DNA of 50,013 bases, from sequence record OZ346186.1. One strand, given 5' to 3'. This DNA is from a phage. The notes beneath the pieces were generated by a model. That model did not search any database. It saw only the letters and a program-made list of their open reading frames with translations, and was not told where the DNA came from. Position numbers and translations under genes: made by a program. Positions 5,804-47,654 of this stretch are shown here, piece after piece (the first letter of the stretch is position 1; every line of letters starts with the position of its first letter).

Positions 5804-5815
5804 CACAAAATTATG

Positions 5816-9520: not shown

Positions 9521-9544
9521 GGGGCGTTGCGCCCCTTTTTTTGT
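9521..9544 (+). terminator. rho-independent terminator after major tail gene
   Basis: ggggcg ttg cgcccc + T9. Confidence 0.7.
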
Positions 9545-9581
9545 TACTGTACAATCATGCTACACGATTCATAATCAATTC

Positions 9582-9600
9582 TTTTAACAAAAAGTGCTAT
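9582..9600 (-). promoter_or_regulatory. box copy in orientation opposite to the late operon
   Basis: plus strand reads TTTTAACAAAAAGTGCTAT between terminator and chaperone gene. Confidence 0.35.
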
Positions 9601-9613
9601 CAAGGAGAAAGAA

Positions 9614-19964: not shown

Positions 19965-20192
19965 TTACATACTGCAATCAGCGTTTTTAAAGTTATCAAT
20001 ACTTACCCACTGAAAATTAAACGGATATCCAGCCTTAACAAGAGTGCGGTCGCCAACTCGTTTTACTCCAAAAATAGCAACTGAATACTGCATACCGCTA
20101 TTTTCATAAATAGCCGTGCATTCACGCTTAGGCATATTTGCGCAACCAGTCAGGGTTGCGGCTGCAATCAAAACGGCGATTAATTTTTTCAT
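19965..20192 (-). CDS. lipoprotein, Cor-like superinfection-exclusion candidate
   Basis: 75 aa, lipobox LTGC after 16-aa signal peptide; located just after tail genes as cor is in T1/phi80-type phages; preceded by box promoter. Confidence 0.5.
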   Translation of the reverse strand: MKKLIAVLIAAATLTGCANMPKRECTAIYENSGMQYSVAIFGVKRVGDRTLVKAGYPFNFQWVSIDNFKNADCSM

Positions 20193-20223
20193 CTTGGTAT
20201 CTCCTTAGTTGTTGTTGGTTGCA

Positions 20224-20267
20224 ACTATACACGATCTTGCGGCGGTCGTTTAGCAAAAAGTGCTATT
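20224..20267 (-). promoter_or_regulatory. conserved box (variant) + TATAGT, promoter cassette for Cor-like lipoprotein gene
   Basis: minus-strand box 20249-20267, -10-like 20224-20229, 18-nt spacer. Confidence 0.5.
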
Positions 20268-27648: not shown

Positions 27649-27692
27649 AATAGCATTTTTTGTTAAACGATGATTTAATGATTGTGTATTAT
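27649..27692 (+). promoter_or_regulatory. conserved box AATAGCATTTTTTGTTAAAC + 18-nt spacer + TATTAT (promoter cassette for helicase operon)
   Basis: box 27649-27668, -10-like 27687-27692; divergent from HTH regulator gene. Confidence 0.5.
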
Positions 27693-27725
27693 ACACGCCA
27701 AATGGCATTACTCAAAGGTTTTAGA

Positions 27726-29765
27726 ATGATTCCAAACATTGAAAAGCAAATATCAGCACTTGGTGAAGCGGTAATTAAATCCATTCAGGAGCGATTCACT
27801 GTTGGCGAGATTGTGCCTTACCCTTACCAGTGCGTTGCATACGCTGAGATCGCAAAGCGTATGAAAAATTATGAGCATCCATTCTTTGTTAAAGCGTCCG
27901 TATCGGCTGGCAAAACATTGATGTTTGCAATGGTTGCTCACCAGTGCCGGAAAATGGGATTAAAAATGATGGTCCTTGCTCGCCAGGCTGAGATTGTGGA
28001 TCAGGATTCTGAAGAGATAACAAATCTTGGCGTGCCGAACTCAATCTATTGTGCAGGACTGAAGACAAAAAGCGCATACTTTCCGATTGTTGTTGGTTCT
28101 GAGGGCACTGTAGTTAATGGGCTGTTTAAAGCGCTTGGCGACTATGTTCCGCACGTTATCGGGATTGACGAGTGTCACCAGGTGGATTGGGAAGACCTTG
28201 CCGACGCCATAGAGAAAGACGAATCATTTTTACAAATGACAACGAAGAAAGGCGAAAAAGTACCAAATCCAGATTATGACATAACGAGCGATAACGAATG
28301 CGAAGAGTTCCTGATTGGTGAGGATGGCTTACCAATGGAGGGAACAGGCCGCACGCAATACACTGTTATTATCATGGAAATGATGCGACGTTGCAGGAAA
28401 GCATATGGTCATGAACTGCGCATCTTTGGTATGACTGGTTCGGAGTTTCGCGGAGTAGTCCCGATCCTGGTAGAAGACAAAAAACAGAAAGGATTCTGGC
28501 GTGAACAGGTTACTAATATTGACACCAACTACCTGATCAAATTCGGTTCTGTTGTGCCAACAAATTTTGGCGACGTTGGCGATCTAGGGTATGACCTTTC
28601 AGAGTTTGAGGCATCCAGCGAGGATGGCGTCGCAGACTTTGACGCTAAAACGCTTCGCAGGATGGAACAAAAAATTCATGAAGAAGCGACCATGACAAAG
28701 CGCATCATGGCGAAAGTTCACGAGATCTGTAAAAACCGTAACGGCGTACTTGTGACATGTGCAGGAGAAAGGCATTGCAAAGAGGCAGCGGCGGCATTGC
28801 CACCTGGAACGACTTACAGGATCATTACTGGTAAGACTGGCGACAACCAGCGCAAGGAGTGGTTGAAGGAAGCATACGAGGGGAAGGTAAAATACATCTT
28901 CCAGGTTCAGGCGCTAACAACTGGCGTTAACGTGCCGTTTTGGGATACGTCGGTTATATTGCGTAAGATTGGATCTCTTACGTTGCTGATTCAGCTTTTA
29001 GGGCGCGGAATGCGACTACTTAAGAAGTGGCATAAGGAGCAAGGATTCCAGAAAGATGATCATCTCGTCATGGATTTTTCAGGAACGATGGACGAGCTAG
29101 GGGAGCTTTATTTTGATCCGATACTGGAACAGGCGCAGCACCAGAAGCGATTCAGAAATGGTAAAGATCCGAAGCCTTGTCCTATTTGCGGAACTCTTAA
29201 CAGCTATTATGCTCGTCGCTGTATGCACGTAGACGAAGACGGCAACAGATGCGAGTGGTTCTTTAAATTCAGGACATGTGACGATCAGGTTGACCCACGC
29301 ACTAAAAAGATTATTCATCGCGGTTGTGGAACGAAAAATGATATTGCGGCCAGGGTGTGCAGACATTGCGACATGTCATTGATTGACCCTAACGAGAAGT
29401 TGAGCGGAAAGCACTACACAAAAAACGACTGGTTCCAGGTGCAATCTTTCTCGGTTGACATGACGAAAAACCAGAAAGGGATAATATTTAATTATGAGCT
29501 TTCCGATGGCATAGACACTTTCAGGGCGAGAGAGATATTTTTCCCTGAATCTGAGAGCCAAATTTGCCGCGCAAAATGGCGAAGCGTTGCTCTTAAGCAC
29601 ATACCAGATCGCCGCGTTGCTGGCATGGTGGCGAGCTATCGTAATGCACGAAAAATAATGCAATATGTTAATCACATTATGCCGCCATCGCGTGTGACTC
29701 ACCGCAAGACTAGCAAGGGAGAAGATAATTTGTACAAGAAGGAATTTAATTATGGCAATGACTGA
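27726..29765 (+). CDS. SF2 helicase (DEAH-box) with C-terminal Cys-rich zinc ribbons
   Basis: Walker A SVSAGKT, DEcH box GIDECH; start ATG 27726 chosen from spacing to box promoter; track ORF from 27660. Confidence 0.75.
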   Translation: MIPNIEKQISALGEAVIKSIQERFTVGEIVPYPYQCVAYAEIAKRMKNYEHPFFVKASVSAGKTLMFAMVAHQCRKMGLKMMVLARQAEIVDQDSEEITNLGVPNSIYCAGLKTKSAYFPIVVGSEGTVVNGLFKALGDYVPHVIGIDECHQVDWEDLADAIEKDESFLQMTTKKGEKVPNPDYDITSDNECEEFLIGEDGLPMEGTGRTQYTVIIMEMMRRCRKAYGHELRIFGMTGSEFRGVVPILVEDKKQKGFWREQVTNIDTNYLIKFGSVVPTNFGDVGDLGYDLSEFEASSEDGVADFDAKTLRRMEQKIHEEATMTKRIMAKVHEICKNRNGVLVTCAGERHCKEAAAALPPGTTYRIITGKTGDNQRKEWLKEAYEGKVKYIFQVQALTTGVNVPFWDTSVILRKIGSLTLLIQLLGRGMRLLKKWHKEQGFQKDDHLVMDFSGTMDELGELYFDPILEQAQHQKRFRNGKDPKPCPICGTLNSYYARRCMHVDEDGNRCEWFFKFRTCDDQVDPRTKKIIHRGCGTKNDIAARVCRHCDMSLIDPNEKLSGKHYTKNDWFQVQSFSVDMTKNQKGIIFNYELSDGIDTFRAREIFFPESESQICRAKWRSVALKHIPDRRVAGMVASYRNARKIMQYVNHIMPPSRVTHRKTSKGEDNLYKKEFNYGND

Positions 29766-30171
29766 TAAAGGCGATTATCTGGAGTTTTACGAAAGAGATC
29801 CGACAGATACTCTGAAAGAGGAATCGCACCAGATCGGGGCGTTTCAATGGGTAACTTATGCTCATCCTGAATTACTGGCATGGCATACGAAAAACGAGGG
29901 CGACAAGGGAATCGCCACCGCAATGATGGATCAGCAAGCCGGACTCGTTAAGGGCGTAAGTGATTTTATCATCCTGATTGGATTAAAAGGCCGTTACCCG
30001 TTTGCAGCAATTGAGATGAAACGCGTCAATAAGTCAGGCAAGGGGAAGGCTTCACCAGTCAGCAAGGAGCAAAAAGCCTTCTTGCGCCGTGTGCGTGAGC
30101 TTGGCGGATTCGCTGCCGTAACATACGGATATAAGCAATTCATGATCGCGGTAGAATACATGATGAAATAG
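29752..30171 (+). CDS. VRR-NUC domain nuclease
   Basis: 139 aa; D...E.K nuclease core (DFIILIG...AIEMKR) typical of VRR-NUC, commonly paired with phage helicases. Confidence 0.6.
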   Translation: MAMTDKGDYLEFYERDPTDTLKEESHQIGAFQWVTYAHPELLAWHTKNEGDKGIATAMMDQQAGLVKGVSDFIILIGLKGRYPFAAIEMKRVNKSGKGKASPVSKEQKAFLRRVRELGGFAAVTYGYKQFMIAVEYMMK

Positions 30172-30211
30172 CACTTTTTGTTAAAACAGGCGCGAAGGAT
30201 TGCGCCATAAT
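30167..30211 (+). promoter_or_regulatory. conserved box + hairpin + CATAAT (promoter cassette upstream of dam)
   Basis: box 30167-30187 includes stop TAG of VRR-NUC gene; hairpin ggcgc..gcgcc; -10-like 30206-30211. Confidence 0.5.
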
Positions 30212-30245
30212 AACACCAGTTCAACAAGCAACAGGTAATTAAGAA

Positions 30246-30947
30246 ATGAGCAAAGAAACCGAAGTGACATTTGAACAAATAGAACGCGAAACATTCATTG
30301 GCAATGCTCTCGCTACTGGTGGTCATTACCAGGCTGTTAAACCAAATCAATATTTCAAAGTGACTGGCAACCGATATAACGGCAGCAATACGCCGGACAT
30401 TGTGCGCGATTTGTGGTCTACGCCGTATGAGCTTGTCGCATGGATGGAAAGCGAATACGGTGATTATGACATCGACGCGGCGGCAAGCAAAGAAAATGCT
30501 GTATGTGAAAAATTCTACAGCAAGGAAACAAATTGCTTAAAGCGTTGGTGGGGTAGTAATAAGCATATATGGCTGAATCCACCGTACAGCAATATTACTC
30601 CATTTGTTAAGAAGGCGATTGAGCAAATGGAGCACAACAACCAGATCGACATTCTGTTACCTTGCGACACGTCAACAGGATGGTTTTATGAGGCGCAGCA
30701 GCGCGCAGCGGAAATCATCTGGATCACTGGCGAAGTTTACCAGGAGGACGGAACAGAATATTCCCGCACAGGACGCCTTGCGTTTACCTCGGCTCTTACA
30801 GGTAAGCCAGTGCAGGGAAACAACAAAGGAAGCGTTATTTTCATCATGCGCGAACTTAAAGAAGGTGAGCAGCAGAAAACTCGATACGTTAAAATCAGCG
30901 ACATTTGCCCTTCGGTGGCAGACCGTCGCGCACGGAAACGGAGCTAA
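30246..30947 (+). CDS. dam: DNA N6-adenine methyltransferase (Dam-like)
   Basis: 233 aa with NPPY catalytic motif (LNPPYS). Confidence 0.75.
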   Translation: MSKETEVTFEQIERETFIGNALATGGHYQAVKPNQYFKVTGNRYNGSNTPDIVRDLWSTPYELVAWMESEYGDYDIDAAASKENAVCEKFYSKETNCLKRWWGSNKHIWLNPPYSNITPFVKKAIEQMEHNNQIDILLPCDTSTGWFYEAQQRAAEIIWITGEVYQEDGTEYSRTGRLAFTSALTGKPVQGNNKGSVIFIMRELKEGEQQKTRYVKISDICPSVADRRARKRS

Positions 30948-30951: not shown

Positions 30952-31209
30952 ATGCAAAAAGAAAGAAGCGTTTATTTAAATGAAACTGGCGAATGGTTGT
31001 TATTTCGCGCTATGGTATGCGATTCACTTGATAAAAACCCTAACGTGAAAAAGATGATTGATTGCGATCCGTGGGAATTTTCAAGCGCATTAGATATGAG
31101 CTTTGAGGAGACAAAAAAACTCCCGCTTGAAAAATGGAACGAGAAAATCAGAAATGACATGCAAGAATTTGTCGATTCGTGGAATTTTCAGCACGGAATA
31201 ATCCACTAA
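30952..31209 (+). CDS. hypothetical protein
   Basis: 85 aa from ATG 30952 (SD ggag); track ORF 30604..31209 is the same frame extended over dam. Confidence 0.55.
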   Translation: MQKERSVYLNETGEWLLFRAMVCDSLDKNPNVKKMIDCDPWEFSSALDMSFEETKKLPLEKWNEKIRNDMQEFVDSWNFQHGIIH

Positions 31210-31252
31210 TAGCACTTTTTGTTAAAACGCCCGACCTTGTGTCGGGCATAAT
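31208..31252 (+). promoter_or_regulatory. conserved box + hairpin + CATAAT
   Basis: box 31208-31228; hairpin gcccgac..gtcgggc; -10-like 31247-31252. Confidence 0.5.
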
Positions 31253-31284
31253 TATTTCATCAAAACGAACAAGAGGAAAACAAA

Positions 31285-31464
31285 ATGGTTGTTTACGATC
31301 CACGCGCTTTTAAAATTGCTCAAGAAGTTTCACGCGAATCTGTTGCTGGCGGTTCGGTTAACGGCTATCAGTTTGATTGGTCGGCAGCAATGACCTTGCT
31401 TAAGGTTGCATATGGTCACGCGCCAATTGAAACAGCGGAGGCATATTATAAGCATGAAGGTTGA
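31285..31464 (+). CDS. hypothetical protein
   Basis: 59 aa hand-translated; SD aagagga; downstream of box promoter at 31208. Confidence 0.5.
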   Translation: MVVYDPRAFKIAQEVSRESVAGGSVNGYQFDWSAAMTLLKVAYGHAPIETAEAYYKHEG

Positions 31465-34161: not shown

Positions 34162-34177
34162 CGCCTCCTTTGTTTTA
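34147..34177. terminator. bidirectional terminator after spanin gene
   Basis: aggaggc ttaac gcctcct flanked by A- and T-tracts. Confidence 0.6.
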
Positions 34178-34396
34178 TAGTGAATCCATCAAATCTTGAA
34201 AGCTGTTTCCGCTATAATCATTCTCGACAAGAATGTAAGCACCTTTCTTCTTTATATCCCATAACATTTCATTGTATTCGTAACGATTTATTTCAAACGT
34301 GCTGCCATCTTCTCTTGTCGCAGTTCCTTTGTCGTTGAAAACATCAAAAGTTACATTGATGATTTTTGTCTCTTTCTTTGTTACTTTGATAGCCAT
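34175..34396 (-). CDS. hypothetical protein
   Basis: 73 aa from ATG 34396 (SD gagga); downstream of box promoter 34430-34474. Confidence 0.55.
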   Translation of the reverse strand: MAIKVTKKETKIINVTFDVFNDKGTATREDGSTFEINRYEYNEMLWDIKKKGAYILVENDYSGNSFQDLMDSL

Positions 34397-34429
34397 TTTT
34401 AAAATCCTCATATTCGTTTCGATGAAACA

Positions 34430-34474
34430 AATATACCCGATACGAGATCGGGAGTCTTAACAAAAAGTGCTATT
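34430..34474 (-). promoter_or_regulatory. conserved box + hairpin + TATATT (minus strand)
   Basis: box 34454-34474 includes stop of 34470..34664; hairpin cccgat..atcggg; -10-like 34430-34435. Confidence 0.5.
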
Positions 34475-34985: not shown

Positions 34986-36569
34986 TTACCCCAGCAATGT
35001 TGGATTTACGAAAACAACGCCATTAATCACACAAATATAATTTCTTTCTTCAAGCATCGGCAGCAGTTGCGTTTCCATACGCTTCATTACGCCAGCCTGA
35101 CCAACAAACGGCTTAACTTTTCGTGCAGCCTCATATATGGCGCGCACATTCAAGATTCCCTTGTTAGCCTTACCGTGTCGAGTGATAATCTCGATTAGTT
35201 TACCCATTTCAGCATCATCACCAGCATAGCCAGAAGCGTTGGCGGCGCTAATGTATGTTTTGCTCAACTCGCTAAACATCAGCAGTGCTTCTTGAACGGT
35301 TTCAACTTCAATCTCTTTCGACTTCTGAGGGTATCCACCAGGATTAAACCAGTTGCGGATAGTGTGCAAAACCGAAGCAATCCTGATCACCTGCTTATCC
35401 ATTTTGCCAAGAGCACCGCGCAGCATTGTATGCGAATACTTTCCGCCATCGGCAAGGTGCGGTTCCATCTCCTGACGAGCCATGTTAAGAACTCGCATTG
35501 CTGATTTGCTGATCTTAAGCTGGATGTTTGATTCACTCATGATGTTATGGATCAGCTTGAAATATTGGCTTTTCAGTTCTCCATCAACAGGTTCATAAGT
35601 AGAATCACCGTTATCATCAACAAACTTTCTACGGCCTAAAAATGATTCCTCACGCACAAGCAAATAACGCTCACTCACACCGATACCGCGCGATCCTGCA
35701 TCCATGATGGCATTTATTGTTTCATCCTGGGCAATTACCGCCATACAGCCAAGAGCTTTAAAACTCATATTGTTGTCAGCGTTTGCACGAGCTATAGAAA
35801 CATGACCATGATCCCATGCTTTTAGCACAAGTTCGCTGTTGGTTTTACGTTCGCTATTGGCATATGTCAGACCTAAAAGGCTGTTAATACTTGTTGCCTC
35901 GTCTGAAATCACAGCAAAGTTACCCTGGCGATTGTTGATTCTTGCAAGTCCTTCCGGCGTTGTGTCGGACACAGGGAAAACGATGTCACACATCTTTTCC
36001 AGTTTTTCTTCCAGATCTTCTTTCTCCTGGTACAGAGACTCCATATCAGCGCCGGAGCGCTCGCTTTTCATCTCTTTTGCAAGACCTGCCAACTTTGCCT
36101 GAATCTTTTTTCTTTCCTTCTTTCGATGATCATTAATTCTTTCCACTTCAGCAACCATAGGAGCAAGTGCCAGGCTGTTAACGGCAGATTTACCAGTTGA
36201 TGGAGGCTGGCTTGTGACAACGTAAAGAGCGGTTGGTTGATCCGTTCCGTGATACTCAACCGTGAAGCGTCCAAGCATTGCAGCAGATACACAGCCGATA
36301 AAATGCATATATGCCGATGATTCAGGGAATTGAACAGATCGAGCAATGTTTCGCGCCAACTTTCCAACAACATCAACATCATTGCCAAGAGAAATTACAG
36401 GGTAGCGATCGTTTCCGTTATTAACATCATTAACCTCACCCCAAAAGCTGGACGATTGACGGTATCCGTTAGCCTGAATGGACACGCGCACCGGAGACAA
36501 TCCTTGTGCATCAGCTAATTCGATAATTTGTTTTGGTGTTAGTTTATTGGTTTCAAACGAAAAATTCAT
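34986..36569 (-). CDS. P-loop replication ATPase (helicase/primase-associated, putative)
   Basis: 527 aa from ATG 36569 (SD aaggag); Walker A SQPPSTGKS and Walker B-like AVISDE. Confidence 0.55.
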   Translation of the reverse strand: MNFSFETNKLTPKQIIELADAQGLSPVRVSIQANGYRQSSSFWGEVNDVNNGNDRYPVISLGNDVDVVGKLARNIARSVQFPESSAYMHFIGCVSAAMLGRFTVEYHGTDQPTALYVVTSQPPSTGKSAVNSLALAPMVAEVERINDHRKKERKKIQAKLAGLAKEMKSERSGADMESLYQEKEDLEEKLEKMCDIVFPVSDTTPEGLARINNRQGNFAVISDEATSINSLLGLTYANSERKTNSELVLKAWDHGHVSIARANADNNMSFKALGCMAVIAQDETINAIMDAGSRGIGVSERYLLVREESFLGRRKFVDDNGDSTYEPVDGELKSQYFKLIHNIMSESNIQLKISKSAMRVLNMARQEMEPHLADGGKYSHTMLRGALGKMDKQVIRIASVLHTIRNWFNPGGYPQKSKEIEVETVQEALLMFSELSKTYISAANASGYAGDDAEMGKLIEIITRHGKANKGILNVRAIYEAARKVKPFVGQAGVMKRMETQLLPMLEERNYICVINGVVFVNPTLLG

Positions 36570-36596
36570 TGATGATAACTCCTTTTTGATGCGGCA

Positions 36597-36641
36597 ATAA
36601 TACCGCACCAATGCTACCCGCATTTAACAAAAAATGCTATT
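36597..36641 (-). promoter_or_regulatory. conserved box (variant) + TATTAT, upstream of replication ATPase gene
   Basis: box 36621-36641 includes stop TAG of 36637..36858; -10-like 36597-36602. Confidence 0.5.
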
Positions 36642-36858: not shown

Positions 36859-37241
36859 TTATACATAGCCTCAAACAAATGACAGCCACCAGCGGAAAAC
36901 CCTACTTCTTCGCGGTATAGCGTCCAGCGGTCGCCAGCTTCATCAAACACATAACCAGCAACAGCGCCAAGCGCGCGGCCTTGCTCAATCTGGTAGCGCT
37001 TTCCTTCTTTGAAATGCTTTTTACAAGGGATCTTGTGATCTACAAAGGTGCATTTAATTGTTTTTGTCTTGATATGACGATAGTCAGACTCAACAGCGTT
37101 TTGCCACTTACTACCCTTTGTAATGCTCTTTACCTGGAATTGTTCCAACTCGATCACATCATCGCTACCAGCAATTTTTTCGTATACAGCTTTATAACGA
37201 CCGTTCATCAAAACGTTGGTTTTATTGCAGATAACTTTCAT
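36855..37241 (-). CDS. hypothetical Cys-containing protein
   Basis: 128 aa; SD aaggag; downstream of box promoter 37272-37317. Confidence 0.55.
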   Translation of the reverse strand: MKVICNKTNVLMNGRYKAVYEKIAGSDDVIELEQFQVKSITKGSKWQNAVESDYRHIKTKTIKCTFVDHKIPCKKHFKEGKRYQIEQGRALGAVAGYVFDEAGDRWTLYREEVGFSAGGCHLFEAMYK

Positions 37242-37271
37242 CGTTTATTTCTCCTTTCGTTTCGGTGAAGT

Positions 37272-37317
37272 GATTATGCCAGGCTTTTACACCTGGCTTT
37301 TAACAAAAAGTGCTATT
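37272..37317 (-). promoter_or_regulatory. conserved box + hairpin + ATAATC (minus strand)
   Basis: box 37297-37317 includes stop TAG of methyltransferase-like gene; hairpin gccagg..cctggc; -10-like 37272-37277. Confidence 0.5.
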
Positions 37318-38414: not shown

Positions 38415-38642
38415 TCATACAGCCTTCCAGCTTTCAATAAACATGCTGTTTTCTTCCAGCAGTTTAATCAATTCTTCGCGCGTGTATTTGCGGATTTTAC
38501 TACCTGGATGTGAGCCAACAACAAACACACCTTTACCACTCGTGATTGTTAACTGGTTGATTCCGCAAGATTTATCCATCTTAATTGCGACGCGGTGATG
38601 TGCATCAACAGTGTTCATGATGTTAGTAACTTTAGCTTTCAT
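38415..38642 (-). CDS. hypothetical protein
   Basis: 75 aa from ATG 38642 (SD gagga); downstream of box promoter 38673-38715. Confidence 0.55.
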   Translation of the reverse strand: MKAKVTNIMNTVDAHHRVAIKMDKSCGINQLTITSGKGVFVVGSHPGSKIRKYTREELIKLLEENSMFIESWKAV

Positions 38643-38672
38643 TATGCAATCCTCATTATATTTGGTGTGATA

Positions 38673-38715
38673 ACTATACCAGGTTTGAGAAATATTGTTT
38701 AGCAATTCGTGCTAT
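38673..38715 (-). promoter_or_regulatory. conserved box (variant ATAGCACGAATTGCTAAAC) + TATAGT (minus strand)
   Basis: box about 38697-38715; -10-like 38673-38678. Confidence 0.45.
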
Positions 38716-38816
38716 CAGTTGAAATAGCTATGGCGCTTTGCTCGCTTGCCGTCTCCGCCATAATGATCATTTGCAACAGCTACCATCCAGGAATTATGGA
38801 ATATTATTAGCTTCAT
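38715..38816 (-). CDS. hypothetical 33-aa ORF
   Basis: hand-translated; stop TGA abuts box copy as in real genes, but no SD. Confidence 0.2.
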   Translation of the reverse strand: MKLIIFHNSWMVAVANDHYGGDGKRAKRHSYFN

Positions 38817-39098: not shown

Positions 39099-39292
39099 TA
39101 CACAACCTCCATAAAAGTATTGAATCCACGCAGTTTGAAAGCATTGCCATGTTTAACAACGTTCCATGTCAGGCCGGAGTGATACGCAACCATATCCTCA
39201 AGATCAATTGTGATGATAGCGCCTTTCTTAAAGATTCCTTTCTCGTGAGTGGTGTCACGCTGTACAACTTTAACATCAACCTGATTTTCCAT
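39098..39292 (-). CDS. hypothetical protein
   Basis: 64 aa from ATG 39292 (SD gagga); downstream of box promoter. Confidence 0.5.
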   Translation of the reverse strand: MENQVDVKVVQRDTTHEKGIFKKGAIITIDLEDMVAYHSGLTWNVVKHGNAFKLRGFNTFMEVV

Positions 39293-39322
39293 TTTTTTAA
39301 TCCTCGTTCGTTGTCGATGCGC

Positions 39323-39369
39323 ATAATATACCAATCAGAGGCGCATCGGTTTTAACAAAAAGTGCTATT
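39323..39369 (-). promoter_or_regulatory. conserved box + TATTAT (minus strand)
   Basis: box 39349-39369 abuts stop TAA of 39369..39635; -10-like about 39323-39328. Confidence 0.5.
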
Positions 39370-39894: not shown

Positions 39895-40163
39895 TTCTTG
39901 ATCTCCTCAGCGATAAACTTCAGGACTTTGCGCAAAAACACTTCATTATTGATGGTCGCTGGCAATTCTTCTTTTACTTCTTGCGGCAGGTAAACGTTGC
40001 CATGCCAGGTTAAGCAATCGTAGTTGATACGATAAGAGCAAAGCCACTCGCAATCGTTATCCGCTTCCCAAATGCAGAGTTGCAGAACATCACCGAAATC
40101 CTCAACAGTCAGATCCAGACCGTGACGCTTTGCAAAGTTGAAAGTGGTTTTGCTGATGTTCAT
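39891..40163 (-). CDS. hypothetical protein (first gene of leftward early block)
   Basis: 90 aa; SD caggag; downstream of box promoter 40201-40246. Confidence 0.55.
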   Translation of the reverse strand: MNISKTTFNFAKRHGLDLTVEDFGDVLQLCIWEADNDCEWLCSYRINYDCLTWHGNVYLPQEVKEELPATINNEVFLRKVLKFIAEEIKK

Positions 40164-40200
40164 TTGCTTTCTCCTGATGGGTATCTCGTTTCGATGTGTG

Positions 40201-40246
40201 CATTATGCCGAATCCAGTCAGGCACGTTTTAACAAAAAGTGCTATT
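40201..40246 (-). promoter_or_regulatory. conserved box + ATAATG (minus strand), first promoter of leftward early block
   Basis: box 40226-40246; -10-like 40201-40206. Confidence 0.5.
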
Positions 40247-41385: not shown

Positions 41386-41638
41386 GGCATTAATTGGAGT
41401 TTTGATTGCAATTGCTACCCTGACCGGATGCGAAAAGGCATCGGAATCAACGGTTGTCGTAGGCGTGGAGTCAGATTTCAAAGTCGGTCGCCTGTTCACT
41501 GTTGACGGATGCACAGCATACAGATTCTATGATAACGGTCGCGCGATCTATTACACCAATTGCAAAGGCGCAACGGATAGCACGTACAACAGCGGAAAGA
41601 ACGTAATGCACCAGCAAGTCACAACAGATATTAAATAG
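41378..41638 (+). CDS. lipoprotein
   Basis: 86 aa; signal peptide MNKALIGVLIAIATLTGC nearly identical to that of the Cor-like gene; stop TAG embedded in box. Confidence 0.55.
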   Translation: MNKALIGVLIAIATLTGCEKASESTVVVGVESDFKVGRLFTVDGCTAYRFYDNGRAIYYTNCKGATDSTYNSGKNVMHQQVTTDIK

Positions 41639-41678
41639 CACTTTTTGTTAAAACGCCAGGCGCAAAACCTGGCATAAT
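41634..41678 (+). promoter_or_regulatory. conserved box + hairpin + CATAAT
   Basis: box 41634-41654 includes stop TAG; hairpin gccagg..cctggc; -10-like 41673-41678. Confidence 0.5.
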
Positions 41679-41710
41679 AGCCTCATCGAAACGAGATTGA
41701 GGAAAACAAA

Positions 41711-41896
41711 ATGGCACGTCGCATCACCAAAGACCTTAAAGTCCTGAACAAAGAAAACGTAGTTAAAATTCTGGTTATCTGGGGCTACAACGAAGAAACA
41801 GCAAAGCAGAAGGTAGAGGCAGGTTATGACCTGGCTGTAAAAGCAATGCCAAACGACGACGCCAAAGGAATTGCAAACTATGTAGCTTTCTTTTAA
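41711..41896 (+). CDS. hypothetical protein
   Basis: 61 aa; SD gagga; conserved leader. Confidence 0.5.
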   Translation: MARRITKDLKVLNKENVVKILVIWGYNEETAKQKVEAGYDLAVKAMPNDDAKGIANYVAFF

Positions 41897-41911: not shown

Positions 41912-42097
41912 ATGAAAACGAAATTAGTCCATAAATCAGAAATCAAGATCGGCGATACTGTGATTCACAACGGAGAGCTTAGAACGGTTGGCAAAGAGTC
42001 AATAAGCCACGATGAATTTATGGGGATTTTGTTGTTCGGTGACTCTTATCGTCTTGGTTACAAGATGGTTGAGCTTGTGGAAGAAGTGAAATTCTAA
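41912..42097 (+). CDS. hypothetical small protein
   Basis: 61 aa; SD aggtga; pattern SEIKIGDTV...G.LRTV shared with 42345..42527. Confidence 0.5.
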   Translation: MKTKLVHKSEIKIGDTVIHNGELRTVGKESISHDEFMGILLFGDSYRLGYKMVELVEEVKF

Positions 42098-42141
42098 ATA
42101 GCACTTTTTGTTAAAACTCAAAAACGATAACCAGGCATAAT
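42097..42141 (+). promoter_or_regulatory. conserved box + CATAAT
   Basis: box 42097-42117; -10-like 42136-42141; followed by about 200-nt leader. Confidence 0.5.
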
Positions 42142-42344
42142 AAATCACATAGACGGGCGGCAAGGATTGCTGCGGGAGAGGAGCAACGCAGGGGCTTGAT
42201 CGAAGTGTCATGATTCCCAACCGTTAGGCCAGAACTATCACACTCGCCACCAGGCAGAACGCTAGATAGGTCACTGAGCTGAGGCTACCGACGAAGTGAA
42301 GCCCGTCACCAAAGATTAAACGATTATTTATGTGAAAGGGGTTA

Positions 42345-42595: not shown

Positions 42596-43501
42596 ATGTT
42601 AAAACTTGCTGACATTAAATTCCCGATCACCTTCGAATCTCGCGGCGTTGGTCATTTCATGTTTACCGACGAGAAGACATGCACTAAGTTTAACGAATAC
42701 GGAAGTCCAAACGCTTCAACAATGGAGATTGAACACTTCATTGAAGCGCACAATAAACACTACAACTCACTCAGAGACTACGGTTACGCAATGCCAGGCT
42801 ACACTTGCTTGCACTATAAGCCATACAGGGGCCAGGTGTTACCAGTGCGCTCACCGGAACGCGCAGAGATTCCGATGGTCCATATGAAAACCTGCGACTA
42901 CAAAAAGCTGTGGTGCTTAAGTGTGGACAATATCAAGTATCCGATCACGTTCCATACGACTGGTAACTCAACGATTCGCTTCACATCACGCGACAATGGC
43001 GTTTATAGCGATGGTACGAAATCAGAGTTGAAAGTTGATTTCTTTGTTAATGGTCACAACAAATTCAATCCACACAATGAAGAGGATAAGGTGTACTACG
43101 TGGAAGATATTACAAAACACTTGTTTGGAGAAACACCATTCGGCGGCGGAAAGACGTCAATTCAGAAAATCATTGGCGAGGAGATCCACAAAGCTGCTAC
43201 CGAAATGAAAGCGCCTGGAGGCTGTAAGATTGATAAAAGCGACCTTGTCACCATTCGTTCAAAGATTGGCGGAGTTGAATACGAGGGCGCAATTGAAAAA
43301 ATGCCGCTCGGCGCTTCAATCATCGGCATCAAAGACGACAACGGCGATTGGCATGATGTTTCTTTCCCGATCAAGCGTATCGAAGTGCACGACGACTTGA
43401 TTTGCCTCCTGGCGCATCATGGTAGCTATAAGAACAATCCGTTCTCCGCAGAGCTAAACATCAAGCGCGGAACGATGGTTAAGTGGAAGGTTAAAGTGTA
43501 A
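42596..43501 (+). CDS. hypothetical protein with internal tandem domain duplication
   Basis: 301 aa from ATG 42596 (SD caggag); two repeats each containing IKFPITF / IKYPITF. Confidence 0.55.
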   Translation: MLKLADIKFPITFESRGVGHFMFTDEKTCTKFNEYGSPNASTMEIEHFIEAHNKHYNSLRDYGYAMPGYTCLHYKPYRGQVLPVRSPERAEIPMVHMKTCDYKKLWCLSVDNIKYPITFHTTGNSTIRFTSRDNGVYSDGTKSELKVDFFVNGHNKFNPHNEEDKVYYVEDITKHLFGETPFGGGKTSIQKIIGEEIHKAATEMKAPGGCKIDKSDLVTIRSKIGGVEYEGAIEKMPLGASIIGIKDDNGDWHDVSFPIKRIEVHDDLICLLAHHGSYKNNPFSAELNIKRGTMVKWKVKV

Positions 43502-43544
43502 ATAGCACGAATTGTTAAAACTCAAATGTGGGGCCAGGTATAAT
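43501..43544 (+). promoter_or_regulatory. conserved box (variant AATAGCACGAATTGTTAAAAC) + TATAAT
   Basis: box 43501-43521; -10 43539-43544 inside inverted repeat ggcc..ggcc. Confidence 0.5.
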
Positions 43545-43574
43545 GGCCTCACTTTCAACGAAGGGGATAAAACG

Positions 43575-43805
43575 ATGTACATTAACAAGAAGATGAAATG
43601 CATTTCCGTTAACTATGGTTGCTCTGGCATGTTCAAGCCTGGCGAAATCTATATGGCGCAAAAGTTGAAATCATCAACCGGATCTTTTTACGTGAGCAAT
43701 AGTAAGGGGCATCGCATGTTCCTGAACGGCGGTGAAGGCACTAAGGTTATGGCACACGCTATGGTAATTGCTGAATTTGAGGAAGTGAAAGATGAAAACA
43801 AATAA
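43575..43805 (+). CDS. hypothetical protein
   Basis: 76 aa from ATG 43575; downstream of box promoter. Confidence 0.5.
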   Translation: MYINKKMKCISVNYGCSGMFKPGEIYMAQKLKSSTGSFYVSNSKGHRMFLNGGEGTKVMAHAMVIAEFEEVKDENK

Positions 43806-44564: not shown

Positions 44565-44722
44565 CCTGGTTACTTTTAATCTTTGTCACAAGTTACAACT
44601 CCGCCGCTATTGAATCGCAAGAGTTCCACGGCGAATCAAGATGCCAGGAAGCACGAAAACAAGTTATTCTCCACATGTCAGATAGTGGGAAAGATGTAAC
44701 AGCGTTATGCGTTCGTAAATAG
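44561..44722 (+). CDS. 53-aa small secreted/membrane protein
   Basis: hand-translated; hydrophobic N-terminus MTWLLLIFVTSYNSAA; ATG overlaps upstream stop; stop TAG embedded in box. Confidence 0.4.
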   Translation: MTWLLLIFVTSYNSAAIESQEFHGESRCQEARKQVILHMSDSGKDVTALCVRK

Positions 44723-44762
44723 CACTTTTTGCAAAAACAGATTGTCGGGCTTGCTGTATAGT
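44718..44762 (+). promoter_or_regulatory. conserved box (variant ..TTTGCAAAAAC) + TATAGT
   Basis: box 44718-44738 includes stop TAG; -10-like 44757-44762. Confidence 0.5.
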
Positions 44763-44793
44763 AAGCCCATCTACAACAAACGAGGATTAAATC

Positions 44794-45057
44794 ATGGCTA
44801 ATAAAGTTGAGTTTTTCAAAGCGGTAGACAAGATTGACGGCGCGCCAAGTTTCTTTGCTATCCATTCCATTGACGGCGAAGACGTTGCATACAACGTGAT
44901 TAGTCGAGACGGTATATCAAAACTTAGTGACCTGGTGGGTTATATTGTGGCGAACGGGAAATGTGCATGGCCCGATTCGCCACGAGAGCCGCGCCGCCGC
45001 GACATGCAAAATCCAGTTCTGCTTTACACGCTGGTAATTGAAGGAGTCAACAAATGA
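44794..45057 (+). CDS. hypothetical protein
   Basis: 87 aa; SD gagga; downstream of box promoter. Confidence 0.5.
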   Translation: MANKVEFFKAVDKIDGAPSFFAIHSIDGEDVAYNVISRDGISKLSDLVGYIVANGKCAWPDSPREPRRRDMQNPVLLYTLVIEGVNK

Positions 45058-45433: not shown

Positions 45434-46024
45434 ATGAAACGAGACATTATCATCCTTAACGGACCGCCAGGAGTTGGCAAAGATACGATTGCGGCATACT
45501 TAACGGGTCATCGTTACGCAGCGGTTAAAGCGTCATTTAAACAGCCTATGTTCGATATTGCATTCTCCATGCTTGGCGTTTACCGATATGACGAGTTCAT
45601 TGATCTGTATAACGACCGCGAGCAGAAAGAAAAGCCTCAAGCAATCTTGCAAGGCAAGTCGCCTCGCCAGTTCATGATCTGGATTAGCGAAGAAGTCATG
45701 AAGCCAGCTTTTGGCGAGCAATATTTTGGGGATCGCATGGTTGAGCAAGTACACGAGATGTACAGAGATTTAGCTGTTGTAATTAGTGATGGCGGATTCC
45801 CTGAAGAAATCAAGCCGCTCGTTAAGGCAGGCCATGAAGTTCACATTTGCCGACTGCATCGCGAAGGATTCACGTTTGATGGCGATTCGCGAAACTATAT
45901 TGACCTGAGCGGATACCATCACCGAGTCAAGCATTACGACTTCACAATGACTGATGGCGAGCCAGAAAAGACTGTTGACGAGATCATCAAAACTGTCCAG
46001 TGGAAACACATTAAGATTGAATAG
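45434..46024 (+). CDS. deoxynucleoside monophosphate kinase (T4 Dnk-like)
   Basis: P-loop GPPGVGKDT and QGKSPRQ segment resembling T4 gene 1 kinase; start 45434 has SD ggaga (track start 45419). Confidence 0.6.
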   Translation: MKRDIIILNGPPGVGKDTIAAYLTGHRYAAVKASFKQPMFDIAFSMLGVYRYDEFIDLYNDREQKEKPQAILQGKSPRQFMIWISEEVMKPAFGEQYFGDRMVEQVHEMYRDLAVVISDGGFPEEIKPLVKAGHEVHICRLHREGFTFDGDSRNYIDLSGYHHRVKHYDFTMTDGEPEKTVDEIIKTVQWKHIKIE

Positions 46025-46064
46025 CACGAATTGCTAAAAGCGGGGCGCAATGCCTCGCTATAAT
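46020..46064 (+). promoter_or_regulatory. conserved box (variant ATAGCACGAATTGCTAAAA) + TATAAT
   Basis: box 46020-46039 includes stop TAG of kinase gene; -10 46059-46064. Confidence 0.5.
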
Positions 46065-46094
46065 GCAAACACCAATCAACGAGAGGAAATCATC

Positions 46095-46496
46095 ATGGTA
46101 GAGTTAAACGACATTCGCGTTGGAACAAAATTTCGCGTAACCTGGGCAGATAAATATTGCGGAGTTAGTAAGGGCCAGGTTGTTACTGTGGATAGTATTT
46201 ATCGCGGATGCAGCAAAGACTTTCGCCGCCCACGCATCAAGAATGGCTATATCATTACTCGCCGTTTTGGCTTTGATCATTATTGCGTAGTGGCCACTCA
46301 AGGAGTTTTGATTGAGCTTCAGCGGATCAGCGATCATCGCGGCTGTCATGTCAAAACAACGAAGATACCATCTCAGCGATCGCGATACGATGCGCGCAGG
46401 ATGCGCAGGCTTGCACGAAACGCGATCAAGTTCAAAAAGCCTGGTGGTAACTTTTACCGAATGTACAAAGGGATTGCGCGAAATGCTGGAAAATAA
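46095..46496 (+). CDS. hypothetical basic protein
   Basis: 133 aa from ATG 46095 (SD gagagga); basic C-terminus. Confidence 0.5.
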   Translation: MVELNDIRVGTKFRVTWADKYCGVSKGQVVTVDSIYRGCSKDFRRPRIKNGYIITRRFGFDHYCVVATQGVLIELQRISDHRGCHVKTTKIPSQRSRYDARRMRRLARNAIKFKKPGGNFYRMYKGIARNAGK

Positions 46497-47078: not shown

Positions 47079-47366
47079 ATGGCTAAAAGCAATCGTAAAA
47101 TGTTGATTAACGCATTCGAAAAGGCGGCGCTTGAGCGTGGTTGGAATGACTCATTTCACACGGCAAACTGTATCCGCCGTTACGGATTCAAGAATTGTCG
47201 CTCATGGGCGCGTCAAATGGCTTCATGGTATGATCTTGATGCGCATTACCTTGATATGGATTGCGCCCTGGTTGAAATGATTGAGCAGGCCGCATTAGAG
47301 GATCGACCATTAACGCAATCTGATTTTGACGATTTTGTGCGCGATGAAATCTATTACATGAGCTAA
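47079..47366 (+). CDS. hypothetical protein
   Basis: 95 aa from ATG 47079 (SD aaaggagg). Confidence 0.5.
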   Translation: MAKSNRKMLINAFEKAALERGWNDSFHTANCIRRYGFKNCRSWARQMASWYDLDAHYLDMDCALVEMIEQAALEDRPLTQSDFDDFVRDEIYYMS

Positions 47367-47409
47367 TAGCACTTTTTGTTAAAACTTCCGCGAGGGCATT
47401 TGTTAAAGT
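47365..47409 (+). promoter_or_regulatory. conserved box + TAAAGT
   Basis: box 47365-47385 overlaps stop TAA; -10-like 47404-47409. Confidence 0.45.
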
Positions 47410-47441
47410 GTCCTCATTGAAGCGAAACAGAGGAAATCAAA

Positions 47442-47654
47442 ATGAAAATTCGAATCACCAGGGTTGACATTGACCGCAACGATGGAAGCATTACCCTTGA
47501 GCAATGCGGGTTCAAAGTTGGTGACATTGTAGAGGTTGACGGATTCTTTCGTGATGGTTCTTACTGCGTGTTAGCAATCCGCAACACAGAAGAAATTCGA
47601 ATCGGTGATAACATCGGCGTAAACCATGACGAATGCGAGGTAGTAGAAGAATGA
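47442..47654 (+). CDS. hypothetical small protein
   Basis: 70 aa; downstream of box promoter. Confidence 0.5.
   Translation: MKIRITRVDIDRNDGSITLEQCGFKVGDIVEVDGFFRDGSYCVLAIRNTEEIRIGDNIGVNHDECEVVEE

Follow-up and report, generated by a model that had tools for sequence, protein, structure and literature searches.

Phages related to T1 carry between their genes a 21-nt direct repeat, aaATAGCACnnnTTGnTAAAA, which was published as the 'DR' of TLS and is present also in T1, Rtp and Rogue1 (Kropinski/Misra 2024, PMC11447400). The roles offered for it were those of a stoperator, an enhancer or an UP-like element, the question being left open, and only three sigma-70-like promoters were reported in that genome (PMC11447400). 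The box analyzed here is the same element, agreeing with it in consensus, in gene orientation, in lying ~76 nt before the start codon, and in having T, G and A subtypes. The published description and its Table S1, however, cover the 21-mer only; a phased -10 hexamer, a C/A start, a leader motif, hairpins in the spacer and a linkage to subfamilies are absent from both, and the -10 hexamer, start site and leader on the 3' side of the box are not described in the literature consulted. We found them in a window of 50,013 nucleotides (record OZ346186.1), the whole stretch of DNA that was analyzed, from a T1-like phage (Drexlerviridae, Hanrivervirus) with ~95% identity to phage herni. A literature search yielded no mapped transcription start or transcriptome for any T1-like or Drexlerviridae phage, the sole match being a T5-like phage, so that every +1 given below is a prediction.

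The middle promoters of T4 combine a MotA box with a sigma-70 -10 hexamer; they lack a -35 hexamer and are not known to have a conserved transcribed region. The cassettes resemble them in that a conserved phage-specific box stands in for the -35 hexamer, at a rigid spacing from a good -10 hexamer, but the box is longer, located further upstream (-51 to -31, compared with ~-30 for the MotA box) and unrelated in sequence. The promoter-early stem-loops (PeSL) are mobile regulatory cassettes of T4-type phages. As in these, a repeated promoter with a hairpin precedes many small early ORFs with no assigned function, at mosaic junctions between related genomes; the cassettes differ in sequence and phage family, in having the hairpin inside the promoter (in the spacer or the discriminator), and in their conserved transcribed segment.

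The start region, in turn, is like those of T7 A1, T7 A3 and lambda PL, where a C is followed by A(+1) 6-7 nt past the -10 hexamer. T7 A1 (c|ATCGAG) is identical to the cassette consensus from -1 to +5 (cATCGA), lambda PL (c|ATCAGC) begins with cATCA, and T7 A3 (c|ATGAAACGAC) shares GAAACGA, one position out of register; this likeness is a post hoc observation. The paradigm of T7 A1/A3, lambda PL and T5 N25 differs in that these promoters have a canonical -35 hexamer and are single copy, whereas each genome studied here carries 7-10 copies of the start region behind a non-canonical box, and the escape role suggested for it is sequence-based. The epsilon element of T7 gene 10 and the A/U-rich S1 sites are likewise single-stranded segments of a short 5' UTR located 5' of the Shine-Dalgarno (SD) sequence, but the motif shows no 16S complementarity, is U-poor and is not phased to the SD.

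Architecture of the cassettes in the window

The focal cassette lies on the minus strand, upstream of a gene for a 73-amino-acid protein with no function assigned (phrog_10679; 34175..34396, ATG 34396-34394). Its 21-nt box, AATAGCACTTTTTGTTAAGAC (34454..34474, -51 to -31), matches the published repeat; a spacer hairpin, CCCGAT-CTCGT-ATCGGG (34436..34452), separates it from the -10-like hexamer TATATT (34430..34435), which starts at offset 38 from the box start. The discriminator TGTTTC comes next, and the interval 34400-34430, in which the first-pass annotation had placed a conserved leader, also includes the last hexamer base (TATATT, 34435-34430). The predicted start and motif, ATCGAAACGAA, occupy 34413..34423 (+1 to +11), with A(+1) at 34423 and C(-1) at 34424. 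The leader of 27 nt, cATCGAAACGAATATGAGGA, contains GAGGA, read from the sequence as the SD (34405..34409), and ends at the ATG. With its T-rich -10 hexamer and discriminator, the focal hairpin also looks terminator-like, and was called so by a scan. The focal site is the top match in the window to a weight matrix trained on 98 gene families from other phages only, without a member in the window or in herni; the predicted +1 positions of the window cassettes rank 1, 3, 8, 9, 14, 16 and 34 among 100,006 positions.

The leader and GAGGA had been noted upstream of seven ATGs, and all seven indeed have a (c)ATCGAAACGA-like leader with GAGGA (7/7 checked), located ~76 nt 3' of the start of a 21-nt box, aaATAGCACTTTTTGTTAAAAC; the typical distance from box start to ATG, 76-77 nt, agrees with the ~75 bp that had been estimated for the cassette. 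Three of the seven are on the plus strand. The cassette of ATG 41711 (41634..41713) has the box at 41634-41654, CATAAT at 41673-41678 and a predicted start at 41685, with the motif ATCGAAACGAG and the leader cATCGAAACGAGATTGAGGA (rank 8); that of ATG 31285 (31208..31287) has the box at 31208-31228, CATAAT at 31247-31252 and a predicted start at 31259, with ATCAAAACGAA and the leader cATCAAAACGAACAAGAGGA (rank 14); and that of ATG 47442 (47365..47444) has the box at 47365-47385, TAAAGT at 47404-47409, here enclosed by the hairpin, and a predicted start at 47416, with ATTGAAGCGAA and the leader cATTGAAGCGAAACAGAGGA (rank 16). The others, besides the focal one, are on the minus strand: ATG 37241 (37239..37317; box 37317-37297, CATAAT 37278-37273, predicted start 37266, ACCGAAACGAA, leader cACCGAAACGAAAGGAG, rank 3), ATG 39292 (39290..39369; box 39369-39349, TATATT 39330-39325, predicted start 39318, ATCGACAACGA, rank 34), with a one-base insertion variant of the leader, cATCGACAACGAACGAGGA, and a homology breakpoint at each end of the cassette, and ATG 40163 (40161..40246; box 40246-40226, CATAAT 40207-40202, predicted start 40195, ATCGAAACGAG, rank 9). 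In the last of these, which has a 32-nt leader, cATCGAAACGAGATACCCATCAGGAG, the SD is 7 nt further off, yet the distance from the motif to the -10 hexamer is unchanged.

The leader had been described as lying downstream of many cassettes, with weaker versions elsewhere, and this holds for part of the set: of the 18 cassettes in the window, ~7 have a strong motif and three a weak one, and eight have none. Weak motifs are found before ATG 44794 (44718..44796, plus strand; TATAGT 44757-44762, predicted start 44769, ATCTACAACAA, rank 113) and ATG 36569 (36567..36641, minus strand; TATTAT 36602-36597, predicted start 36590, ATCAAAAAGGA, rank 111). Cassettes of the GAA type are those of ATG 43575 (43501..43577, plus strand; TATAAT 43539-43544, predicted start 43551, ACTTTCAACGA) and, without the motif, ATG 46095 (46020..46097, plus strand; TATAAT 46059-46064, predicted start 46071, ACCAATCAACG) and ATG 38642 (38640..38716, minus strand; TATAGT 38678-38673, predicted start 38666). 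The motif is missing also before ATG 30246 (30167..30248, plus strand; CATAAT 30206-30211, predicted start 30218, AGTTCAACAAG), before the helicase gene at ATG 27726 (27649..27728, plus strand; TATTAT 27687-27692), where the cassette overlaps, and is divergent from, the promoter of a Cro-like regulator gene, and before a lipoprotein (Cor-like) gene (20190..20267, minus strand; TATAGT 20229-20224, ATG 20192). Another cassette without the motif (42097..42158, plus strand; CATAAT 42136-42141) has a long G+C-rich leader, which was considered as a structured RNA and rejected, since it folds no better than shuffled sequences. Two minus-strand cassettes are antisense to the late operon. The one just past the major tail protein gene (9540..9601) has a T1 counterpart (box 18850, minus strand), and its predicted transcript heads directly into a bidirectional terminator hairpin; the other, before the major head protein gene (5764..5841), has a poor -10 hexamer and a T1 counterpart as well (box 15086, minus strand).

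Phasing and anchoring across the family

A search with the box pattern returned 16 copies in the window compared with 0.33 expected (16-18 copies overall). In the window, 15 of the 18 boxes are intergenic and oriented with the gene, at 71-82 nt, mostly 74-77 nt, from box start to ATG; of the remainder, two oppose the late operon, and for one, whose leader is long, no start codon was called within range. For the family-wide analysis, 229 cassettes in 115 gene families were collected from T1, TLS, Rtp, Hanrivervirus and one Klebsiella Webervirus. Across the 115 families the box columns carry 1.2-1.8 bits, and among 298 boxes, with offsets measured from the box start, 67% have a -10-like hexamer at offset 38, compared with 1-3% at other offsets. 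The -10 columns are T(-12) in 78%, T(-10) in 86% and A(-9) in 70% of the families, A(-11) and T(-7) being preset by the cassette filter rather than found. Upstream of the hexamer, G(-14) is present in 83% and T(-17) in 68% of the families, but T(-15), which together with G(-14) would make an extended -10, in only 43%. Downstream of it the start columns show C(-1) in 77%, a pyrimidine at -1 in 100% and A(+1) in 85%, so that C(-1)A(+1) stands 7 nt past the hexamer, followed by T-C-G-A-A-A-C-n-A-A. We accordingly place the predicted start at this conserved A.

No -35 hexamer is found in the cassettes 16-18 bp from the -10 hexamer, the TTGnTA inside the box being 22 bp from the -10 hexamer, and a standard sigma-70 scan of the window shows no excess of promoters (33 compared with 40.4 expected), calling a single cassette, at 43515, with a weak first hexamer TTAAAA. 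The window does contain a canonical sigma-70 promoter (TTGACT, 16 nt, TAAAAT, then gcaggc and A at 20670), which has the same 6-nt discriminator length and a cassette-like leader, ATACCAACAAACGAGG. Across the family, hairpins are overrepresented in the spacer, with the best perfect stem averaging 5.6 bp compared with 3.7 bp in shuffled sequences; mismatches in these stems, which bear on the strand on which the hairpins work, are G-T in six cases and A-C in three, a small count. Two other identities of the box were considered and rejected. A sigma-54 reading (TAGCAC-N3-TTGC compared with TGGCAC-N5-TTGC) has the spacing off by 2 nt and often GT for GC, and the reverse complement of the box contains an rrn boxA-like TTTAACAA, but this is on the wrong strand for the genes served. 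As an UP element, the box would presumably have its T-tract and A-tract about one helical turn too near the -10 hexamer, and the start region appears to be unlike the NAD-capping promoter consensus.

The leader motif is anchored to the -10 hexamer and not to the start codon. For the 39 gene families whose leaders are at least 28 nt long, an alignment on the -10 hexamer gives 1.05, 1.01 and 0.76 bits at columns +2, +3 and +4, compared with at most 0.12 bits in columns -25 to -22 of the alignment on the ATG. Similarly, the starts of AACGA form a sharp peak at +6 or +7 from the predicted start and are scattered from -27 to -15 relative to the ATG, to which only the SD columns are anchored. The suggestion that the leader is a translation-initiation determinant is therefore trivially correct for GAGGA, an ordinary ATG-anchored SD, but does not suit the behavior of (c)ATCGAAACGA, which is tied to the -10 hexamer and is not complementary to 16S rRNA. 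Because its position is fixed relative to the -10 hexamer rather than the ribosome-binding site, the motif is most likely the transcription start and the first transcribed bases of a compact T1-like promoter cassette, not a translation signal.

Possible functions of the leader motif

The reading that we favor, with a probability of about one half, is that the motif constitutes the start-proximal end of a ~62-bp Drexlerviridae promoter module, comprising the start and the initial transcribed sequence. Such a module would open with the box (-51 to -31), followed by 16 bp of variable sequence (-30 to -15), in most cases encoding a hairpin, and by G(-14). The next parts would be a -10 hexamer near the consensus, six discriminator nucleotides of which the last is C, A(+1), and T-C-G-A-A-A-C-(G)-A-A at +2 to +11. 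Transcription by host RNA polymerase would then begin with this conserved A, located 7 nt past the hexamer, and the first 10-11 transcribed bases would be selected mainly for initiation and promoter escape, with a fixed C/A start and a purine-rich tract free of pyrimidine-G steps at +5 to +7 as the favored traits. The same bases would form the 5' end of a short, unstructured, U-poor leader of ~25 nt, with ribosome binding handled separately by the ATG-anchored GAGGA. Promoter activity and a reader of the box are putative, and the effect on initiation or escape is deduced from sequence. The initial transcribed sequence modulates escape >10-fold, and its purine content correlates with productive yield; pyrimidine-G steps near +6 slow escape down, and GG or GA favor it (PMC5961368). 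In the cassettes, +5 to +7 is AAA, without a pyrimidine-G step, in the region that matches the +6 escape zone. As a counterpoint, the consensus contains C-G steps at +3/+4 and +8/+9, a step type that is unfavorable near +6.

An RNA-level determinant at the 5' end is possible but doubtful. Under this explanation, AUCGAAACGA, at the very 5' end of early mRNAs, would be read by a phage or host RNA-binding protein, or would stay single-stranded and act in ribosome landing or in stability, boosting translation or protecting the transcript. The motif would occupy the first 10 nt of the transcript, and its anchoring to the start site suits a 5'-end tag equally well. The leaders, with a modal length of 25-26 nt, are 48% A and 13% U, and they are unstructured, as expected of an accessible and RNase E-poor segment: the folding energy is 0 both for AUCGAAACGAU and for whole leaders, which are less structured than shuffled sequences (z = +0.49). 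The two cassettes without a gene, 9601- and 5841-, lack the motif, although two cases carry no statistical weight. On the other hand, the distance to the SD or ATG is not fixed, about eight of the 18 window cassettes, those of replication genes among them, do without the motif, and no candidate RNA-binding protein was identified. Searches for signals that an RNA-level element might carry were likewise negative, with no match to either strand of E. coli rrsB 16S at up to two mismatches, no match in the whole window to Rfam 15 at the gathering threshold, and no covariation, the pairing of columns 2-10, 3-9 and 4-8 (0.44, 0.31 and 0.36) being close to expectation (0.42, 0.25 and 0.31). A 5' mini-hairpin UCG-AAA-CGA was rejected, its pairing being at the independent-column expectation in the 115 gene families and its fold energy 0; some leader variants do look compensatory (TTG...CAA, TTC...GAA). 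Also rejected was a sigma-70-dependent pause element or Q-type loading site. The pause element of the lambda PR' type, AACGAT, is -10-like, with A at position 2 and T at position 6, and the motif has no T at the sixth position: AACGAA is found in 40 and AACGAG in 20 gene families, and AACGAT is outside the 25 commonest 6-mers.

Constraint among orthologs bears on the favored reading as well as on the RNA-level explanation. The motif changes faster than the box or the -10 hexamer (substitution rate 0.195 compared with 0.064 for the box), that is, the constraint is soft. Within the leader it is strongest at +5 to +7 (0.07-0.15), which fits the escape zone around +6 of the favored reading; at +2 to +4 the rate (0.20-0.25) does not fall below that of the discriminator, so that the TCG part can be only a preference. 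Of the RNA-binding determinant proposed in the first-pass annotation, a role of the 5' end has some probability, whereas a strict protein-recognition site is disfavored by this softness.

Somewhat less probable still is that the motif lacks a separate function and was inherited as the downstream end of a single subfamily of mobile promoter cassettes, kept alike by descent and recombination. The strict motif is linked to the box subtype (65% against 22-33%, p = 6e-4) and to the hairpin class (69% against 26%, p = 5e-4), and strict ATCGAAACGA thus marks one cassette subfamily, with a TTT-type box and a hairpin upstream of the -10 hexamer; common descent of the subfamily could explain this linkage too. 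Homology breakpoints with three close relatives are concentrated in the cassettes (15/46 compared with 6.2% expected, p = 6e-8, under a null of all sequence), one of them being exactly at the downstream edge of the motif, 34413, and there are cassettes that are identical through ATCGAAACGAA and then lead into different genes. In the favored reading, too, the cassettes double as recombination joints, which helps the copies to stay alike. However, in same-subfamily pairs with unrelated spacers (identity 0.20), +1 to +11 still reaches 0.61 (TTT-type cassettes), between a discriminator (0.32) and a +12 to +22 segment (0.35) that are both at background; an 11-nt island between such flanks would not be left by descent or conversion alone. 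Among all cassettes with unrelated spacers, the mean pairwise identity at +1 to +11 is 0.47, compared with 0.32-0.35 expected. The motif is also retained across subfamilies whose terminase large subunits are just ~61% identical. In line with the favored reading, the same leader precedes non-homologous genes in T1, TLS, Rtp, Hanrivervirus and the Klebsiella Webervirus.

A broader proposal, which we consider improbable, is that the whole module represents a previously uncharacterized Drexlerviridae promoter class, in which the role of the first 10 transcribed bases would go beyond the tuning of escape: AUCGAAACGA would be a 5' signature letting a phage or host factor tell phage early mRNA from host mRNA, and the spacer hairpins would join in promoter recognition. 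The signature might then serve selective translation or protection during takeover; one register of the hairpin puts the -10 hexamer in the loop.

It is quite unlikely that the motif is a DNA operator, TCG-N3-CGA at +2 to +10, bound for later shut-off by a phage protein such as the Cro-like regulator (27163-27636, minus strand). The 9-mer TCGAAACGA is a short imperfect dyad, the Cro-like helix-turn-helix protein is conserved in the family, and the motif shares AAAC with the 3' end of the box, but covariation between the dyad arms is absent, the most frequent variants disrupt the dyad (ATCAAAACGA, ACCGAAACGA) or shift the spacing of its arms (ATCGACAACGA), and the constraint is far weaker than on the box.

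Finally, chance or the composition of A-rich, SD-containing leaders has next to no probability: the bare 9-mer is not enriched in the window (11 matches with up to one mismatch compared with 13.4 expected) and its information content is partly plain A-richness, but the three exact copies are all at +2 of a cassette, and the matrix ranks, the composition and shuffle baselines and the non-cassette control refute this explanation. In that control, the window's cassette leaders, scored against leader composition, exceed the leaders of 66 other ORFs in it that have an SD but no cassette (Mann-Whitney p = 1.3e-6), and 60% of the cassette leaders lie above the 95th percentile of the controls. The first-pass annotation would have given up the leader had its similarity been no better than expected for such leaders; the matrix ranks and the SD-leader control decide that it is better.

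Implications for Drexlerviridae

Taken alone, the leader motif is a modest refinement rather than a surprise. As part of the promoter module that we favor, it makes the published repeat the upstream half of a rigidly phased unit, which turns the open question of the role of the repeat into a testable promoter model. The module would also be a very compact terminator-promoter-leader part for engineering. The model yields base-level predictions of transcription starts at ~17 sites in this genome and at hundreds across the family, and with these, transcription units could be annotated better in the ~500 Drexlerviridae sequenced so far, among which are many candidates for therapy against Klebsiella and E. 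coli.

A phased cassette that includes the 21-nt repeat

The phage is a T1-like siphovirus (Drexlerviridae, Tempevirinae, Hanrivervirus) that shares, across positions 30000-42000, 94-96% identity with Escherichia phages herni, phiE31-2 and JakobBernoulli and with Shigella phage pSf-1. The late structural genes occupy about 1-20 kb on the plus strand; the genes for replication and lysis lie in the remainder of the window, as do two divergently oriented arrays of small ORFs of unknown function. The window carries 16-18 copies of a 21-nt box, compared with 0.33 expected. This box is already in the literature: the 2024 reannotation of the related phage TLS describes 18 intergenic copies of the 21-nt repeat aaATAGCACnnnTTGnTAAAA, in subtypes T, G and A, oriented with transcription ~76 nt 5' of start codons; T1, Rtp and Rogue1 are said there to hold similar repeats, only three sigma-70-like promoters are reported for TLS, Table S1 contains 21-mers only, and the function of the repeat (stoperator, enhancer or UP-like) is left as an open question (PMC11447400). 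In the literature, we found no description of a -10 hexamer, start site or leader downstream of this repeat, and no start-site or transcriptome data for Drexlerviridae phages.

Read from the sequence, the minus-strand cassette before the ATG at 34396 consists of the box AATAGCACTTTTTGTTAAGAC (34474-34454), the intervening segment tcccgatctcgtatcggg, the -10 hexamer TATATT (34435-30) with the discriminator tgtttc, the leader motif ATCGAAACGAA (34423-13) followed by tat, and the Shine-Dalgarno (SD) sequence GAGGA (34409-05), which ttttaaaa separates from the ATG. The first-pass annotation had noted a shared leader followed by GAGGA before seven ATGs, and all seven fit that description; the majority consensus of an 18-sequence alignment is AAATAGCACTTTTTGTTAAAAC-n-GGTATAAT-nnnCnC-ATCGAAAnGAAA-n-GGA-n-ATG.

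The window, herni, T1 and 120 IMG/VR loci retrieved by the box pattern yielded 298 box matches, among which 229 cassettes with enough flank passed a -10 filter and were grouped by downstream coding sequence into 115 families. In 67% of the 298 matches, a -10-like hexamer (second base A, sixth base T, 4/6 or more matches) starts exactly 38 nt past the box start, compared with 1-3% at each of the other offsets from 20 to 120. With the hexamer set at -12 to -7, the box spans -51 to -31, and the TTGnTA within it (-40 to -35) is not usable as a -35 element because it lies 22 bp from the -10. The columns of the 115 families show T at -17 (68%), G at -14 (83%), C at -3 (70%), C at -1 (77%; pyrimidine in 100%), A at +1 (85%), T at +2 (55%), C at +3 (49%), G at +4 (51%), A at +5 to +7 (69%, 73% and 67%), C at +8 (50%) and A at +10 and +11 (68% and 73%), and the predicted start precedes the ATG by 24-27 nt in most cassettes. 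Relative to the predicted start, the shared leader segment thus occupies -1 to +11. A standard sigma-70 scan called only one cassette and found no promoter excess (33 compared with 40.4 expected). A Klebsiella Webervirus outside this set has 12 cassettes with the same architecture (tacccc followed by ATCGAAACGAAGAACGGAG, and ATCGACAACGAACGAGGA, are examples), with the terminase large subunit of this group only ~61% identical to that of the window phage.

Conservation and anchoring of the leader motif

The leader similarity is greater than chance or composition would yield. Among pairs of cassettes from different families with unrelated spacers (<20% identity), identity at +1 to +11 is 0.47, compared with 0.32-0.35 expected from composition or within-leader shuffling; for the 37 TTT-type cassettes, unrelated-spacer pairs (spacer identity 0.20) reach 0.61 at +1 to +11 but only 0.32 across the discriminator and 0.35 over +12 to +22. 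The motif is an 11-nt island with unconserved flanks. A weight matrix trained on 98 families represented in neither the window nor herni places window cassette starts at ranks 1, 3, 8, 9, 14, 16 and 34 among 100,006 positions, and, scored against a leader-composition background, cassette leaders exceed those of the 66 SD-preceded non-cassette ORFs in the window (p = 1.3e-6), so that the resemblance goes beyond that of SD-containing A-rich leaders in general. The bare 9-mer is not enriched across the window (11 matches at up to one mismatch, 13.4 expected), and all three exact copies in the window occupy the same cassette position.

Constraint on the motif is uneven. In 55 ortholog pairs of cassettes with coding starts at least 5% different, the per-site difference is 0.064 for the box and 0.075 for -14 to -7 (both are biased downwards, since the filter selected on the box and the -10), 0.064 for -1 and +1, 0.195 for +2 to +11, 0.211 for the discriminator, 0.290 for the spacer, 0.361 upstream of the box and about 0.18 for the coding sequence; the best-kept leader positions are +5 to +7 (0.07-0.15). 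The start dinucleotide is strict, and the remaining leader is a preference, not a strict recognition site.

It is the -10 hexamer, and not the ribosome site, that fixes the position of the motif. For the 39 families whose leaders reach 28 nt or more, -10 alignment gives 1.05, 1.01 and 0.76 bits at +2 to +4 relative to leader composition, whereas ATG alignment leaves at most 0.12 bits in columns -25 to -22; the SD columns show the opposite pattern, with information under ATG alignment. The commonest leader word, AACGA, begins 25 times at +6 and 12 times at +7, whereas relative to the ATG its start is spread over -27 to -15. The window cassettes 41635+ and 40245- carry an identical cATCGAAACGAG 6 nt past CATAAT, with the SD 4 nt beyond it in the former and 11 nt in the latter. 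Of the earlier proposal of a translation-initiation or RNA-binding determinant, the SD part therefore stands, whereas the distinctive motif belongs with the start site.

Another stereotyped leader sequence, (AC)CAATCA(R)GRG, encompasses the SD, begins 17-19 nt upstream of the ATG and occurs in 13 of the 115 families (in IMG/VR loci, in T1, for example at 1450, 4864 and 47117, and in the window at 40170-40185(-)); unlike the ATCGAAACGA motif, it is ATG-anchored.

The cassette as a putative promoter

Because the box, the -10 hexamer and the C/A dinucleotide are rigidly phased, in the orientation of the downstream gene, a promoter is the best reading of the cassette, and the motif would be its start site and initial transcribed sequence. 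In support of this reading, the same start is found in strong E. coli-polymerase phage promoters, namely T7 A1 (acagcc followed by ATCGAGAGGG; annotated start 498), T7 A3 (gtaccac followed by ATGAAACGACAG; start at 750) and lambda PL (GATACTgagcac followed by ATCAGCAGG). The purine content of the initial transcribed sequence correlates with productive yield, and pyrimidine-G steps near +6 slow escape, whereas GG or GA there is favourable (PMC5961368). The best-kept leader bases, AAA at +5 to +7, lie in this region; for the consensus C-G steps at +3/+4 and +8/+9, no advantage is obvious.

An RNA-level role of the transcript 5' end is a live alternative. The typical leader folding energy is 0, for the UTR with 18 further nucleotides the mean is -2.1 kcal/mol, which means less structure than in shuffled sequences (z = +0.49), and the leaders are composed of 48% A, 19% C, 21% G and 13% U. 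No complementarity of the motif to E. coli 16S rRNA was found, nor any Rfam family in the whole window. A 3-bp hairpin, UCG-AAA-CGA, was rejected: the fold is not predicted and the pairs show no covariation. Pure hitch-hiking of the motif in a mobile cassette is likewise a live alternative, against which the island-like conservation argues.

Several other elements of the window resemble or accompany the putative promoters. A canonical sigma-70 promoter before the exonuclease gene (20636-20695(+), ATG 20693; TTGACT 20636-41, 16 nt, TAAAAT 20658-63, gcaggc, predicted start A 20670) has the cassette geometry, a cassette-style discriminator, a cassette-like leader ATACCAACAAACGAGGG and a partial box, AAATAGC, in its spacer; the shared geometry and leader also favour the promoter reading. 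The best canonical sigma-70 match of the early region (40835-40863(+); TTGACA, 17 nt, AATAAT, 11/12), located where two small early ORF arrays diverge, is a candidate box-independent immediate-early promoter. Two boxes, both kept in T1 (18850-, 15086-), are oriented against the late structural operon: that at 9540-9601(-) directly follows the gene for the major tail protein, and that at 5764-5841(-) immediately precedes the gene for the major head protein. The former has the -10 hexamer TAGCAT, and its predicted transcript runs at once into a bidirectional terminator hairpin (fold z = -2.8), which points to either a short antisense RNA or a block by convergent transcription. A gene for a Cro-like helix-turn-helix protein (27163-27636(-); phrog_2856, weakly matched by Cro proteins in the PDB) is served by the canonical promoter TTGAGT-16-TATAAT (27715-27688(-)), whose -10 overlaps that of the divergent helicase cassette (27687-27692). 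The 5' UTR of this gene holds the box in reverse complement (27650-27666). If the protein binds the box, such a layout (27630-27730) would be suited to autoregulation.

Subfamilies, hairpins and recombination joints

The strict motif (at most two mismatches to ATCGAAACGA or ATCGACAACGA) is found in 65% of the TTT..T box subtype, compared with 29-33% in two other common subtypes, in 54% of all TTT boxes compared with 22% of non-TTT boxes (p = 6e-4), and in 69% of cassettes with a hairpin upstream of the -10, compared with 26% (p = 5e-4). Other subfamilies have stereotyped leaders of their own, for example, ggcctt followed by ATTGAAGC..CAACCAATCAGAGGA, and atcccc followed by ACACCAAC.

Family-wide, the variable segment between box and start nearly always contains a hairpin (mean best perfect stem 5.6 bp compared with 3.7 bp in shuffles; stems of at least 6 bp in 55% of cassettes compared with about 4% of shuffles), for example, at 34436-34452(-), 41655-41673(+), 44747-44768(+) and 47393-47415(+), and the stem sequence varies between cassettes while complementarity is kept. 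In one register, the 3' arm ends at -13/-12 and, with the -10 and a T-rich discriminator, looks terminator-like; hairpins of this type are annotated as terminators in the T1 record. In the other, the discriminator itself forms the 3' arm, which extends to -1 or 0 and leaves the -10 hexamer in a 10-12 nt loop with no U-tract after it. In the window cassettes at 31209, 39352, 42098, 43502, 44719 and 47366, among others, the upstream gene ends where the box begins, its stop codon overlapping or directly adjoining the first box bases (TAA-ATAGCAC or TAATAGCAC). Everything from this stop codon through box, hairpin, -10, leader and SD to the ATG thus fits into about 76 nt, and such compaction may be the reason why the hairpin occupies the only segments of the promoter that are free in sequence.

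When the window is compared with herni, pSf-1 and damhaus, 15 of the 46 homology breakpoints fall inside cassettes, compared with 6.2% expected (p = 6e-8), or 8 of 32 when counted as distinct sites (p = 6e-4), an enrichment that partly reflects the ordinary preference for intergenic joints because the control was all sequence, not gene boundaries. The breakpoints often lie exactly at the box edge (31208, 41633, 43500, 44718, 39369) and also at the leader or ATG edge (34413, 39293, 42165). Since breakpoints fall within them, the cassettes are recombination joints to which different genes are attached, and in allowing small early genes to be exchanged they resemble the PeSL cassettes of T4-type phages. 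Overall, the analysis extends a published, so far unexplained repeat to a full, putative promoter model with base-level predictions.
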